Assembly: GCA_013141505.1 (NCBI GenBank)
Contig: JABFQX010000011.1
Span: forward strand, 3,631 to 67,630
Origin: Methyloglobulus sp.
GTDB taxonomy: Bacteria; Pseudomonadota; Gammaproteobacteria; Methylococcales; Methylomonadaceae
Direction: 5' to 3'
Length of the DNA: 64,000 nt
Shown here: piece by piece, positions 14,697-19,740 of the stretch
Layout of the letters: every line of letters begins with the position of its first letter
Numbering within the stretch: position 1 is the stretch's first letter
Program-made: the position numbers and the translations under genes
Notes under the pieces: model-generated
What the model saw: the letters and a program-made list of their open reading frames with translations, nothing else
Told to the model about the DNA's origin: nothing
The model's database searches: none

Positions 14697-15227
14697 TTGA
14701 CAATGACAGCAATCTCCTCACTCGATATGGCTTCATATTGGAACCAAGCTCTGGCTGATGAGTTGTTGCGCTTTCTGACCGGGCGGCTCAAATGTCCGGA
14801 GGTCGCCGCTGACCTGACCCAAGAAACCTACCTGCGGTTTCACCAATTTATCCAAACCACACCGCCCAATAACGCCCGCGCTTTGGCGTACCGTATCGCC
14901 GTCAATCTGGCAAATGATTACCAGCGCAAAGTGAAAGTCAGGGGCACCTATAATGCGGATACTGACTTCACCATTCTTGAAGATATACATCCAAGCGCAA
15001 TGCCAGGGCCAGAACAGGTCGTCATGGCGCAACAACAGCTCCAATGCCTACAGGATGCGCTCGATGAACTCAGCGAAGAATGCCGCACCGCCTTCCTGCT
15101 GCATAGCGTCCACGGCCTAACCTATCCGGAAATCGCCGCCGAACTGGGTATTTCACGGTCTTTGGTAGGCAGGCATTTGGTAAAAGCCTTAGCCCACAGT
15201 AAGCAGCGGCTGAAAGCCTCAGAGTGA
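14697..15227 (+). CDS. ECF sigma factor, FecI-like
   Basis: AADLTQETYLR, AYRIAVNLAND, CRTAFLLHSVHGLTYPEIAAELGIS; directly upstream of fecR. Confidence 0.9.
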   Translation: MTMTAISSLDMASYWNQALADELLRFLTGRLKCPEVAADLTQETYLRFHQFIQTTPPNNARALAYRIAVNLANDYQRKVKVRGTYNADTDFTILEDIHPSAMPGPEQVVMAQQQLQCLQDALDELSEECRTAFLLHSVHGLTYPEIAAELGISRSLVGRHLVKALAHSKQRLKASE

Positions 15228-15315: not shown

Positions 15316-16497
15316 ATGGCCTTGCAATCTGACCAAGCCGAACTGCCCGAATTGACGCTACAGGCCATTGAATGGCTGGTAAGGCTGCGTTCCGATGATA
15401 TGGATGAAGCGGAAACCCATGCCTTTGCCGATTGGTTGTCGGAAGATATTCACAATGCCGAAGCCTTTGCCGATGCGGAAAATTTGTTCCAAAATTTGAC
15501 CATTGCCGCACAAAGCCCCAAGGTGATCTCACCGAGCCTTGCCGAACCTAACACAACACAAATCAGCACACTGCCTGTCCCCAGCCCGATAAACAAGCCG
15601 AAGGAATCCCTGAGCAAGTTGACTCCGATCATGGTTCGACGACCAACGGAAGTGCCTGTGGTGCAAGCTCACCACGAACGGAATCAACCACTTGCCGTTC
15701 GTCCTGAGCCTGTCGAAGGACTTGTTCAGAGATTCCTAAATAAAGGCTGGCTTGCGTTACCTTTGGCTTTGGCGGCGGCCTGGCTGTTCGCAGTGGTATT
15801 GATAATGCCCAAACAAGCACACCTGTTCGACGACTACCTCAGCGATTACCACACCAACACCGGCGAGGTGCGGGAAGTGCAACTTGCCGATGGCAGCCAA
15901 CTCCTGCTTAACACCAATACAGCGGTTTCGGTGGAATACCAGACTTCTTTACGGAAAATCGTATTGCATCACGGTCAAGCGCGGTTTACGGTTGCCAAAG
16001 ATAACCAACGTCCGTTTGAAGTCAAGACTAGCGGGCTATTAGTCCGTGCCTTGGGTACGGTTTTTGAAGTTTACAACCCAGAATCGAGCGAAACCCGCGT
16101 GACTGTCCAGGAACATGCCGTTGCAGTCCGGCTTCAACCGGAAACCTTCATGACTGGAAGCGAGCAACCAACAACAAAAATCGTGCAGGAAGGGCAACAG
16201 CTAAGCTATGTCGGCAATGGCATGCTTAACCCGCCAGAACCGACTGATCTGGCACAAACCAGTGCTTGGCAACAGCGCAAACTGTCCATCAACGACCGCC
16301 CGTTAGGGGAATTGATCGCCGAACTCGATCGTTACCGCGTGGGCCGTATCTTCCTTTCCGATGCCAAGTTCCTTAACCTGCGTGTGGTCGGCGTATTTTC
16401 CTTGGCTGACCCTGATGCGGTACTAAAAAAAGTCTGTAAAGTGCTGGCCTTAGAACAAACCCACCTAGGCCCGTATTGGATAGTGCTGCATCGTTGA
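15316..16497 (+). CDS. FecR-family anti-sigma factor with ~46-aa insertion
   Basis: AIEWLVRL...FADWL N-domain, TM helix, YHTNTGEVREVQLADGSQLLLNTNT, VRALGTVFEV, AWQQRKL, VVGVFSL. Confidence 0.92.
   Translation: MALQSDQAELPELTLQAIEWLVRLRSDDMDEAETHAFADWLSEDIHNAEAFADAENLFQNLTIAAQSPKVISPSLAEPNTTQISTLPVPSPINKPKESLSKLTPIMVRRPTEVPVVQAHHERNQPLAVRPEPVEGLVQRFLNKGWLALPLALAAAWLFAVVLIMPKQAHLFDDYLSDYHTNTGEVREVQLADGSQLLLNTNTAVSVEYQTSLRKIVLHHGQARFTVAKDNQRPFEVKTSGLLVRALGTVFEVYNPESSETRVTVQEHAVAVRLQPETFMTGSEQPTTKIVQEGQQLSYVGNGMLNPPEPTDLAQTSAWQQRKLSINDRPLGELIAELDRYRVGRIFLSDAKFLNLRVVGVFSLADPDAVLKKVCKVLALEQTHLGPYWIVLHR
15601..15738. repeat. Palindromic (REP/MITE-like) element inserted in frame in fecR
   Basis: Terminal IR aggaatccctgagcaagt (15602-15619) / acttgttcagagattcct (15720-15737), 16/18 match; inner IR ...aagctcaccacgaacgg / ccgttcgtcctgagcctgtcgaa; 138 nt = 46 codons. 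Confidence 0.75.
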
Positions 16498-16545: not shown

Positions 16546-16932
16546 CTAACCGCCCCCTTTTTTGGAGAAATAAACAACCTCGGGTAAATCCTGAAAATGG
16601 TCGTCAGCCGTTATCAACAGCACACCAAGCTGGCTGGCGGTAGCATAAATAATCGCATCGGCAAACGAAAACCGATATTGCAAAGCCAAGTCTGCCGCAT
16701 ACAAGGACAGTCCTGTATTTAGCGGTATAACCCGGCCTTCTTCGGTCAAAGCGATCACTTCCAGTGCTTTGACTTCGCCTTTTTCCCGCTTTGCCCATTT
16801 GTAAAGCTCAAACTGCAAGGTGGTAGGAATAACCAGTTCAGCCGGGTTTTCCATATAAGGCGCAAAGTCATCAGCCAAAACTCCATCGGTCAGCCACTCT
16901 ATCCAGCCGCAAGTATCAACCAAACACGCCAT
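16546..16932 (-). CDS. vapC: PIN-domain toxin (VapC family)
   Basis: LVDTCGWIE, LQFELY, FSFADAIIYATA, LITADDHF PIN acidic residues. Confidence 0.88.
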   Translation of the reverse strand: MACLVDTCGWIEWLTDGVLADDFAPYMENPAELVIPTTLQFELYKWAKREKGEVKALEVIALTEEGRVIPLNTGLSLYAADLALQYRFSFADAIIYATASQLGVLLITADDHFQDLPEVVYFSKKGGG

Positions 16933-17147
16933 TAGATACGGTCTTGGTGATCCCTGTAATTATCAGGATTGCACCCCGAAAAGCTGCCTTTGGCCGCTTT
17001 TAATGAACGCACAGGAACCAACTCAATAATATTGCCTTTGGCGATTAACGTAAACTGCTGCCCCGCTTTCAGGTCAAGCTGGTCACGTAATGCTTTAGGG
17101 ATTGCCAATTGAAATTTACTGGATAACTTGACTGAAATCACACACAC
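16932..17147 (-). CDS. vapB: AbrB/MazE-fold antitoxin (VapB)
   Basis: KLSSKFQLAIPKALRDQLDLKAGQ AbrB signature; stop overlaps the toxin start. The true start may be GTG at 17141. Confidence 0.85.
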   Translation of the reverse strand: MCVISVKLSSKFQLAIPKALRDQLDLKAGQQFTLIAKGNIIELVPVRSLKAAKGSFSGCNPDNYRDHQDRI

Positions 17148-17352: not shown

Positions 17353-19740
17353 ATGACAATCCGTTTCAATCGCCATCACCTGATAATGGCGTTTATCACC
17401 TTCATACTTTGCGGAAAGGTTAGCGCAGAGAGTACCACGCAGCAATACCACATCCCGGCGCAGCCTCTCAACAGCGCCTTGATGCGGTTTGCGTCCGATT
17501 CCAACCTGGAACTGTTGTACACCGCCGATAAACTGCGGGCGTTCAAAACGGGTGGACTAGACGGCAGCATGACCCCGGCGCAAGCTTTGTCGCAATTGCT
17601 GCAAGACAGCGGGATGACCTATCGATTTGTCGATGCTAATACTGTCACGATTGAACCGCCGCCAAGCAATTTCATAAAAACAGCTAATGTCGAAGAAAAA
17701 CCCGAGCCACAATCGAGCAGCGAAACGACCTTGCCGAAAGTGACGGTAGAAGCGGATGCCGGTTACGATTCCGAAAGCCCCAGCCTAACGACTCCATCGA
17801 TAATGGAGTCGCAACAAAAATTAAACCGTGTACCCGGTGGGACAACCGTGATTGATGGCGAACGAATCAAAGAAGGTAGTGCATTATCAGTGAGCGATGC
17901 GTTGGCGACAGCACCCGGCGTTTATGTCGGTGATAACAGTACGGGAGCCACCGCCGGATCACGCATATCCATGCGAGGCTCCGATGTCAATTCGTTCGTT
18001 TCGCCTATTCGTGGCTTGAAGATTCTTCGCAACGGCATGCCTCTCACAAATGCAAACGGCGACTCCGATACCGAATCCATTAACCTTTATGCGATTGATC
18101 ATATCGATGTTTATCGGGGAGCAAATGCGTTGGAATATGGCGGCAGCAATCTGGGTGGTGCAATTAACTTCATCACCCCGACCGGCTATACTGCTGATCC
18201 GTTAAAAATTGGCATGACTTGGGGTACCAATGGCTATGTCAAGCCCTCGATTAGTGCGGGTAAGGTTTTCGGCAACGGCTTTGATGCCTATGGGGCGTTT
18301 TATTACCTCGATACCAATACGACCCGGGAGAACAACGAACAAGAACAGCTTTTGGGGCACGGCAATATCGGTTATCGCTGGAACGAAAATCAGGAAACCC
18401 GGCTGTACTTTGATATTCAAAATCATGGATTTTTATGGCCATCGACATTAACCAAACAACAAATCGACGAGAACCCCAAGCAAAATCCAAACGACTGGTC
18501 GTTGCCAAATGGTTTCCCTGTGTACCGCGTCGATTTGAAACATTCAGTGAAACTGGCTGATGGTGACCGCTTTGATGTCGGAGCTTATTATTCCAATCAT
18601 CAGTATAGGTATGATTACACAGGCGGCAGTAATCATGATACCTGGGAAAATGTCGGTTTCAATTGGCGACACGAAATCAACGGCAATCTGTTCGGCTTGA
18701 AAAACAGGGTCGTTTGGGGCGGACTCACGCAAGGAATGTTTATTGATGACCGGAACTATGACACCGTTAACCGGCATCTTGGCCCTTTAAGGAACGCCGA
18801 GCGCGACCACTGGCTCAATGTTGAAGGCTATCTGGAAGATCAGCTTAGCCTGTCAGATACTTTCACCTTGGTTGCCGGTCTGCAACTTAACTATCGCAAA
18901 GTTGACTATGAACGCACTGAAGGTTATGTTGCCAGTGCATCAATGCCCAGTAGCCAGGGCGATCAGGATTTTTTTAACGCAAACCCCAAACTGGGTTTTA
19001 CTTGGCAAGCCACAAAAGAGGCACAGATATACGGTAATTTAAGCCGCAGTTCAGAACCCGCCCCGCTGTGGAATTTGGAGCATATATTTGTTAAACCAAC
19101 GCTAAATGCCCAGACGGGCAGTACAGTTGAAATCGGTACTCGTGGGCAAACGGATCATTTGAAATGGGATTTGGCGTTTTACCAGTCCTGGCTGAATAAT
19201 GAATATCTGATAATTGGGGATCCTTTTAACCCAACTGTTTCTACCTCTACAAACGCCAATGGTACAACCTTGCATAGCGGTGTCGAATTAGGCCTTGAAA
19301 CCACAATACCGTTAAATCTTGTTTCTGCTGACGACCAAATTCGCTTCAGTGGAAATTACACCTGGAATAATTTCCACTTCGACAAAGATCCTCTTTTAGG
19401 CGATAACCGTATGCCAGGCATACCGGAACACAATGCCCGCTTGGAAGCAATCTATCAACATCCCAGCGGGTTTTATATCGGGCCGAATGCACAAATTGTC
19501 AGTTCCAATTGGGTGGATTTTGCCAATACACTGGCCGCCAGACCTTATGCTTTGCTCGGTGCCCGTATTGGTTGGGATGACGGCGAACACTGGAAGCTAT
19601 TTATTGACGGTCGTAATTTGACTAATGAACATTATGCGTCGTCTGTTTGGGTAATGAGCAATGCGGGCGGTGCTGACCAGTATCAGTCCAACCCAGGAGC
19701 AACACGCTCGATATTTGGTGGCTTTGAATACCGATTTTAG
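17353..19740 (+). CDS. TonB-dependent receptor with N-terminal STN signalling domain (FecA-type transducer)
   Basis: YHIPAQPLNSALMRFA...GLDGSMTPAQALSQLL STN domain, TonB box LPKVTVEA, plug IDVYRGANALEYG, C-terminal GFEYRF. Confidence 0.92.
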   Translation: MTIRFNRHHLIMAFITFILCGKVSAESTTQQYHIPAQPLNSALMRFASDSNLELLYTADKLRAFKTGGLDGSMTPAQALSQLLQDSGMTYRFVDANTVTIEPPPSNFIKTANVEEKPEPQSSSETTLPKVTVEADAGYDSESPSLTTPSIMESQQKLNRVPGGTTVIDGERIKEGSALSVSDALATAPGVYVGDNSTGATAGSRISMRGSDVNSFVSPIRGLKILRNGMPLTNANGDSDTESINLYAIDHIDVYRGANALEYGGSNLGGAINFITPTGYTADPLKIGMTWGTNGYVKPSISAGKVFGNGFDAYGAFYYLDTNTTRENNEQEQLLGHGNIGYRWNENQETRLYFDIQNHGFLWPSTLTKQQIDENPKQNPNDWSLPNGFPVYRVDLKHSVKLADGDRFDVGAYYSNHQYRYDYTGGSNHDTWENVGFNWRHEINGNLFGLKNRVVWGGLTQGMFIDDRNYDTVNRHLGPLRNAERDHWLNVEGYLEDQLSLSDTFTLVAGLQLNYRKVDYERTEGYVASASMPSSQGDQDFFNANPKLGFTWQATKEAQIYGNLSRSSEPAPLWNLEHIFVKPTLNAQTGSTVEIGTRGQTDHLKWDLAFYQSWLNNEYLIIGDPFNPTVSTSTNANGTTLHSGVELGLETTIPLNLVSADDQIRFSGNYTWNNFHFDKDPLLGDNRMPGIPEHNARLEAIYQHPSGFYIGPNAQIVSSNWVDFANTLAARPYALLGARIGWDDGEHWKLFIDGRNLTNEHYASSVWVMSNAGGADQYQSNPGATRSIFGGFEYRF

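Follow-up and report, generated by a model that had tools for sequence, protein, structure and literature searches.

How does a regulatory gene come to carry a long palindrome inside its coding sequence and still remain open? The question is raised by a fecR-like gene of Methyloglobulus sp., which encodes an anti-sigma factor or sigma regulator of 393 aa with an intact reading frame. The gene lies at positions 15316-16497 (+) of a 64,000-nt stretch of contig JABFQX010000011.1, referred to here as the window, and contains a palindromic block of 138 nt (15601-15738, +) that is read as 46 codons (residues 96-141, KESLSK...VQRFL) in the segment that links the anti-sigma domain to the membrane helix. 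Very probably, the block is a MITE (miniature inverted-repeat transposable element) derived from an insertion sequence (IS) of the IS5 family and carried in frame in fecR as a tolerated passenger. A first-pass annotation of the window had already placed a palindromic element in frame in the linker before the transmembrane helix, and repeat searching recovers the terminal repeats, the inner pair and the 24-nt interruption that it described.

Anatomy of the insert

The inverted-repeat search found terminal arms at 15602-15619 and 15720-15737 (18 nt, 16/18 complementary) and inner arms at 15664-15681 and 15695-15712 (15/18 complementary). The net insertion, with the limits given in the first-pass annotation, comprises a MITE core together with the remnants of a TTAA duplication. 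The core of 134 nt (15603-15736, +) consists of a 110-nt family core plus a 24-nt subfamily unit. It opens with the left terminal inverted repeat GGAATCCCTGAGCAAGT (15603-15619, +; consensus GGAATCTCTGAACAAGT), which matches the ends of an IS5-family IS of a sister species, and closes with the right terminal inverted repeat ACTTGTTCAGAGATTCC (15720-15736, +). The interior is formed by two arms that we call REP-like, after the repetitive extragenic palindromes (REPs), by resemblance only. The left inner arm, GGTTCGAC ... AAGCTCACCACGAACGG (15633-15681, +), is interrupted by the nested 24-nt unit (gaccaacggaagtgcctgtggtgc / GACCAACGGAAGTGCCTGTGGTGC; 15641-15664, +), which encodes RPTEVPVV, and the right inner arm CCGTTCGTCCTGAGCCTGTCGAAGG (15695-15719, +) encodes VRPEPVEG. 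Other peptides encoded by the insert include LTPIMVR and NQPLAVRPEPVEGLVQR.

Both junctions depart from the family pattern. At the left junction (15600-15602, +) the TTAA is reduced to AA, the missing TT having gone together with 27 nt of native linker (nine codons) that are present in the second occupied locus, L013, and in the empty alleles. On the right, the copy of the duplication reads TAAA (15737-15740, +) where the family has TTAA, the deviant base being A15738, which changes CTT to CTA synonymously. No Pfam family was matched by the 46-aa insert peptide and no Rfam family by the element, and neither promoter-like nor terminator-like sites were detected within it or close by.

The repeat family and its subfamilies

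The block is not a chance palindrome, because related copies are present at about 64 loci of the same genome, a 3.87-Mb draft in 99 contigs that was searched with the block by BLASTN and iterated nhmmer. Both ends are present at about thirty of these loci and the remainder are mostly the inner palindrome alone, which agrees with the repeated, multi-copy mobile element anticipated by the first-pass annotation. The consensus of 118 nt, TTAA-GGAATCTCTGAACAAGTTGATTCC...GGTTCGACAAGCTCACCACGAACGG...CCGTTCGTCCTGAGCTTGTCGAAGGACTTAATCAGAGGTTCC-TTAA, is a 110-nt core between two TTAA, with the ends TTAA-GGAATCTCTGAACAAGT...ACTTAATCAGAGrTTCC-TTAA (left end TTAAGGAA), and a 17-nt terminal repeat consensus is common to the roughly thirty copies. 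Core length ranges from 110 to 186 nt (110, 128, 134 nt and more), because short modules are nested inside, and the core has no open reading frame of its own. Sixteen copies could be cleanly delimited, and TTAA flanks nine of them on the left, ten on the right and six on both sides; the window copy is flanked by AA and TAAA, and the copy at L013 by TTAA and TAAA.

The family was found in 17/17 genomes of the genus. Full-length copies also occur in several other genera of the same taxonomic family, the inner arm is still more widespread, and a metagenome scan gave more than 300 translated matches. In our literature search no paper was found that describes this family in methanotrophs.

Most copies lack the 24-nt unit, as does the family consensus; where it is present it always lies at TTCGAC^AAGCTC. 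It occurs at seven places in the genome of the window, in at least twelve full-length copies of one other genome (G011) and in copies of six more (G003, G005, G007, G008, G010 and G012). By this distribution, the unit is the hallmark of an abundant subfamily and not a private interruption of the window copy. The inner REP-like arm gave 62 matches in the same genome, where the arms also occur alone.

A further module is an 18-nt hairpin unit (TTTATGCCC-N3-5-GGGTAC), which was found 69 times in the genome (for example at C67:36446-36463, C25:8212-8342 and C88:7796) against about four expected when a 2-Mb shuffle is extrapolated. Within MITE copies the unit is nested at a number of different places, and it also lies in frame in an IS982-like transposase, where GDKGY becomes GD[LCPRGY]KGY.

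The parent insertion sequence

Several intact copies of an IS whose ends (GGAATCTCTGATTAAGT / GGAATCTCTGAACAACT) are the same as those of the MITE were found in the genome of a sister species (G013). This IS is 1.16 kb long and is flanked by TTAA at 2/2 loci. Its product of 318 aa scores 352 bits on the model NF033581, 'IS5 family transposase' (cut-off 140), and has 48% identity with E. coli InsH across 314 aa, while the MITE end shares 13 of its 17 positions with the end of E. coli IS5. The element in fecR has terminal inverted repeats, belongs to a small, multi-copy and transposase-free family and shares its ends with an autonomous element; by these sequence features it is a MITE derived from an IS5-family IS, with a REP-like palindrome pair as its interior.

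The sole copy of the parent IS in the genome of the window (C85:477-1160) is 5'-truncated and retains 183 of about 320 codons. Its truncated transposase gene (C85:477-1025) is followed by ...GTTGTTCAGGGTTTCC-TTAA, which is the right end of the MITE. No autonomous IS with these ends was found in this genome among end-matches paired 300-4000 nt apart, contig ends included, and with only a truncated parent IS present the MITEs of this genome may be immobile. An IS at C67:35787-36795 with a PF01609 match was rejected as the parent, as its ends (TAAGACCTTACCCGTGGTGCA...) are different and it is IS982-like.

Reading frame of the element

The family consensus and the parent IS agree on the boundaries TTAA-GGAATC...GATTCC-TTAA. 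When the consensus was translated in six frames, only frames +2 (KESLNKLIPFMVRQAHHERNQPLTVRPELVEGLNQRFL) and -2 (KEPLIKSFDKLRTNGKWLIPFVVSLSNHEWNQLVQRFL) were found to be open, the other four containing stops. An element inserted in the phase nTT-AAn lengthens the gene by 38 codons (44 or 46 when nested modules are present) and introduces no stop in either orientation. Core and duplication together are divisible by three both in the basic form (110 + 4 = 114 nt) and in the form found in the window (134 + 4 = 138 nt). Since the consensus is stop-free in the insertion frame in both orientations, no repair of the element is needed for the gene to stay open. By comparison with the consensus, A15601 is the family base, and the deviant position is A15738, where the consensus has T. 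A length that is a multiple of three, one phase that is free of stops both ways and surviving sites that are disordered linkers together suggest why such events survive.

Empty and occupied sites

Empty alleles of the site are found among close orthologues. The orthologue in the sister species G006 (356 aa, 86-89% identical) and the metagenomic orthologue P0003 (356 aa) are without the element, and the empty site in both reads ...AAC AAG CCA CCC ACC TGC CGA TCC GCA TTC GCC TTG-AAT AAG.... The 138 nt are absent from the orthologous loci L002 and L014. FecR orthologues are 342-359 aa in length and the close ones 352-359 aa, the named relatives of the window protein being from Methyloglobulus sp. 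and other Methylococcales, so that the expectation of a FecR longer than usual is borne out (393 against 356 aa). The net gain in the window is 37 and not 46 aa (356 + 46 - 9 = 393 aa), because 27 nt were lost beside the left end of the element.

One other occupied allele was found, the metagenomic orthologue P0002 (locus L013; 402 aa, 77% identical), which has exactly 138 additional nucleotides at the same site and in the same orientation, the 24-nt unit included. Its junctions read ...ACA TTT AAG GAA TCG...AGA TTC CTA AAT AAA.... The clean gap of about 46 aa that the first-pass annotation expected against orthologues is obtained with P0002 only, the window gene having lost the 27 nt beside the element as well. 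A target duplication of 2 or 3 nt was considered and rejected, as the exact gain of 138 nt would then need a stop or a frameshift; a 4-nt duplication with one substitution was kept.

Between the window and P0002 the element is identical at 131/138 positions (94.9%), or 93.5% at third codon positions, with five non-synonymous and two synonymous changes, whereas the flanking coding DNA is 77-83% identical and its third positions 63-72%. The two alleles belong to different orthologue clades, each with empty closest relatives, and their flanks are native to their own clades: the right flank of L013 is identical at 22/22 nt to the empty allele P0007, and that of the window resembles L013 no more closely than it does its own clade. 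A metagenome scan with the FecR protein gave no extra orthologues, its matches being swamped by the MITE-encoded word QAHHERNQ. Five metagenome matches that seemed to run from the element into 'FecR' residues were rejected as chance open frames and are not FecR homologues.

Mechanism, protein context and status

The probable course of events begins with an IS5-family transposase that would have moved the element in trans into a TTAA, such mobilisation being suggested by the identical ends and the same TTAA duplication. The target would have straddled Leu-Asn codons (nTT-AAn) just upstream of the membrane helix of FecR. The gene would have stayed open, because core and duplication are a multiple of three and contain no stop in that phase, and it would have gained 46 residues in a naturally disordered linker. 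Later, the window copy would have lost 27 nt of native linker and the outer half of the left TTAA, and a synonymous T-to-A change would have arisen in the right TTAA. The copy has no intact duplication left, and it is probably frozen in place, because the genome has only a truncated parent IS.

In the AlphaFold model, built with 21 homologues, confident helices are found at residues 12-66 (anti-sigma domain) and 147-175 (membrane helix), whereas residues 67-136 have a predicted local distance difference test score (pLDDT) below 50 and no secondary structure. The insert is therein predicted to lie in a disordered linker. The transmembrane helix WLALPLALAAAWLFAVVLIMP (15748-15810, +; predicted residues 145-165/175) comes right after it. 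E. coli FecR has a flexible loop ahead of its membrane helix, and RseP releases an N-terminal fragment of it that activates FecI (PMC9249621). By analogy, the RseP-released fragment would keep the insert. Given the intact domains and open frames, FecR is probably still functional with its cytoplasmic tether lengthened; if so, this pre-membrane tether tolerates at least 46 extra residues. The ratio of five non-synonymous to two synonymous changes between the two copies looks neutral and argues against selection on the insert at the protein level. The most likely status of the insert is that of a tolerated passenger, the neutrality of which we infer.

Alternative explanations

Several observations weigh against a tolerated IS5-derived passenger. 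The RNA of the block folds as a single long hairpin (-60.6 kcal/mol, z = -6.1; 0/200 shuffles as good), and so strong an mRNA hairpin could reduce FecR expression. An intact cognate transposase was not found in the draft genome, mobilisation in trans being deduced from the sister species. The window copy has no intact duplication on either side, and its TTAA target is read from the family and from the left side of L013. Both occupied alleles have the same odd right junction (TAAA, with A15738), and the contrast between element and flank identity, together with the empty closest relatives of each allele, does not fit simple vertical descent.

It is unlikely that the insertion damages the gene, with the hairpin or the extra peptide impairing the expression, membrane insertion or signalling of FecR at a decaying locus. 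A hairpin of this strength inside the coding region, the extra 27-nt deletion adjoining the element and a vapBC pair also inserted between fecR and fecA would all fit such decay. However, the sigma factor, FecR and receptor genes are all three full-length and open, the window FecR has kept its conserved domains intact along with RALGTVFEV, the Gly-Thr self-cleavage motif, the second occupied allele is fully open too, and the family persists in frame in CobT, in four protein clusters.

The occupancy shared by the window and P0002 allows several histories. Vertical descent with many precise losses is possible but fits poorly with the low divergence of the element. Independent hits on the single in-phase TTAA of a short linker are also possible, in which case the shared junction change would be a coincidence. 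Co-transfer of the element with its flanks is a third possibility, which the flanks do not support: they are native to their own clades and give no sign of a recombination tract. The first of these, one old insertion inherited vertically and precisely lost in all other lineages, has in our judgement a low probability. The two alleles do share site, orientation, subfamily and the odd right junction, and palindromes between short direct repeats are prone to precise deletion; against this, third-position identity is 93.5% in the element and 63-72% in the flanks, and at least four independent precise losses would be needed. It is an equally doubtful proposition that FecR-type regulators have a recurrent landing site in the TTAA of the Leu-Asn/Lys codon junction ahead of their membrane helix, and that the 138-nt element recently entered, or passed between, the two diverged alleles, as the contrast between the element (95% identity) and its clade-native flanks (77-83%) might suggest. 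If true, it would mean strongly targeted insertion, or selective retention that tunes the pro-sigma fragment released by RseP, and would be a natural instance in which a MITE has remodelled a protein of signalling.

Quite improbable, too, is a gain of function by the insert, for example a longer or altered cytoplasmic tether that tunes the RseP-released pro-sigma fragment and was hence retained or spread between lineages. This would account for the same element and junction in two diverged alleles with clade-native flanks, the element being far less diverged than the flanks, for the presence of the family in the same linker of the homologues P0018 and P0028, and for the frame that is open in both occupied alleles. 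On the other side stand the roughly neutral ratio of changes between the copies, the predicted disorder of the insert, its absence from most orthologues, the finding of only two FecR alleles with the insert among 5.8 billion proteins and the nine-codon deletion that the window copy tolerated beside the element. For the first two of these reasons the description of the insertion as 'domesticated' in the first-pass annotation is unsupported.

The companion proposal, that the element originally carried an in-frame TAG on the left and that a T-to-A change at 15601, by mutation or selection, removed this stop to give a domesticated insertion, can hardly be right: in the window copy alone, extension of the inverted repeat by one pair would indeed need a T at 15601, which would pair with A15738 and make TAG, but the mismatched partner A15738 is itself the derived, mutated base and its change synonymous, both in the family consensus and in the parent IS the end is TTAA-GGAA and not TAGGAATC as a stop would need (nor the taggaatc left end predicted for a genome-derived consensus), the consensus has no stop in this frame, and the other occupied allele, P0002, reads TTT AAG at its left end.

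Other translated copies

In-frame insertion of this family was found to recur in unrelated genes, namely those of FecR, a nitroreductase-family protein, CobT and a YgiF-like protein, all of which represent a small minority of the copies. The genome search for further coding insertions suggested by the first-pass annotation yielded a 570-aa nitroreductase-family protein (C46:63926-65635, -), in which a family copy lies between the two halves of the protein at residues 304-341. The DNA of its orthologues in G006 and G003 is contiguous at this point and leaves a clean gap of 38 residues; the insert is shared by G007. A search of 5.8 billion proteins with the insert plus the membrane helix returned CobT and the YgiF-like protein as carriers of the peptide, together with a receptor call that has it at its N-terminus; among FecR alleles only two have it. 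The CobT proteins with the insertion fall into four clusters (389-402 aa) from Methyloglobulus and have the 24-nt subfamily form. The translated, 24-nt-bearing subfamily is also carried by the YgiF-like CYTH/CHAD protein. The CobT and YgiF-like cases comprise the proteins P0122-P0126, from Methyloglobulus and metagenomes, and G014:C6:62838-62955.

Within the genome of the window, about two of about thirty full copies are inside genes. Few in-phase survivors after purging is the usual MITE picture and is far from the frequency seen for the Rickettsia palindromic elements (RPEs). For annotation, peptides of the type MVRQAHHERNQ..VRPEPVEG in Methylococcales proteins represent read-through of MITEs or REPs and not conserved motifs.

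Among FecR homologues, the alignment places this family at the homologous L-KK junction in P0018 and further upstream in P0028. Other repeat-derived peptides, such as ...SPLPEGEG... and ...HPHPNLLPQGR..., were observed in the pre-membrane linker of P0047, P0061, P0023, P0024 and P0017. The sequences suggest that the FecR pre-membrane linker acts as a general sink in which repeats inserted in frame collect. Separately, REP-like half-arms were found to be read as VRPE(P/L)VEG in RibD and in two restriction/methylase-like open reading frames (C34:37190-37230, C46:109564-109603 and C80:9229-9263).

Comparison with known systems

The kind of event described here is already known, as in-frame MITE insertions have been documented for RPEs, ERIC, the Coxiella QMITEs and Anabaena MITEs (PMC10969869, PMC5896051), and the RPE precedent for insertion into coding sequence cited in the first-pass annotation is thus a documented one (PMC10969869). 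Like the present element, RPEs are palindromic repeats of about 100-150 nt with a frame-compatible length that lie in frame in unrelated protein genes at positions tolerated by the fold (PMC10969869). They differ in having no recognised transposase partner and no clear anatomy of inverted repeats plus duplication, and a large share of them lies in genes, whereas the present family has ends of the IS5 type, TTAA on both sides of some of its copies and a parent IS that could be identified, and only about two of its roughly thirty full copies in the genome of the window are in genes. The likeness drawn here is one of behaviour; a relationship in sequence is not expected and membership of the RPE families is not claimed, the host being a methanotroph.

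With IS5 the element shares terminal repeats that begin GGAA...GAACAAGT and, in part of the copies of its family, the 4-bp duplication of a YTAR-type site (TTAA, with TTAG at one copy). It differs in having no transposase, and its interior is a pair of REP-like palindromes with optional 18-nt and 24-nt modules and not the remnant of an IS deletion. ERIC/IRU, Coxiella QMITE1/2, the Anabaena MITEs and pneumococcal BOX are likewise small non-autonomous repeats that occasionally form in-frame fusions with, or extensions of, host open reading frames, but they belong to other sequence families and other host groups than this element of a Methylococcales methanotroph. GTTCGTCCTGAGCCTGTCGAAGG and its partner arm resemble the pairs of REP/BIME elements; these inner arms also occur alone and are far more widespread than the full MITE. 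As regards REP-associated tyrosine transposases, no inner arm was found within 800 nt of the seven Y1-transposase-like genes (E <1e-4, of eight PF01797 matches). Outside Rickettsia, the locus offers a clearly resolved case of a palindromic mobile element read through in proteins, together with its parent IS, its target site and both empty and occupied alleles.

The host gene and its neighbourhood

FecR of the window has the Pfam domains DUF4880 (residues 16-57) and FecR (177-269), a single membrane helix and, as neighbours, an extracytoplasmic function (ECF) sigma factor and a TonB receptor bearing an STN domain. It scores 157 bits against the NCBIfam FecR equivalog model, for which the cut-off is 385, and on this score it is a member of the family and not the ferric-citrate orthologue. 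The FecI-like ECF sigma factor (14697-15227, +; Pfam Sigma70_r2 and Sigma70_r4_2) is the first gene of the cell-surface signalling locus, and a FecI-like sigma gene also precedes fecR at the orthologous loci. Downstream of fecR, the FecA-like TonB-dependent receptor (17353-19740, +; Pfam STN, Plug and TonB_dep_Rec_b-barrel) carries the STN signalling domain and is the partner of the sigma/anti-sigma pair.

A vapBC-like toxin-antitoxin pair (16546-17147, -) lies between fecR and the receptor gene and consists of a PIN-domain gene (16546-16932) and a MazE/AbrB-type antitoxin gene (16932-17147), both on the minus strand. The gap between fecR and the receptor gene is only about 255 nt in G006 and in one metagenomic locus, so that the vapBC pair is a second insertion at this locus. 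Two more MITE copies were found just downstream of fecR paralogues elsewhere in the genome, one at C74:20148-20270 (paralogue C74:19307-20140) and the other at C6:1225-1335 (paralogue C6:1884-2633).

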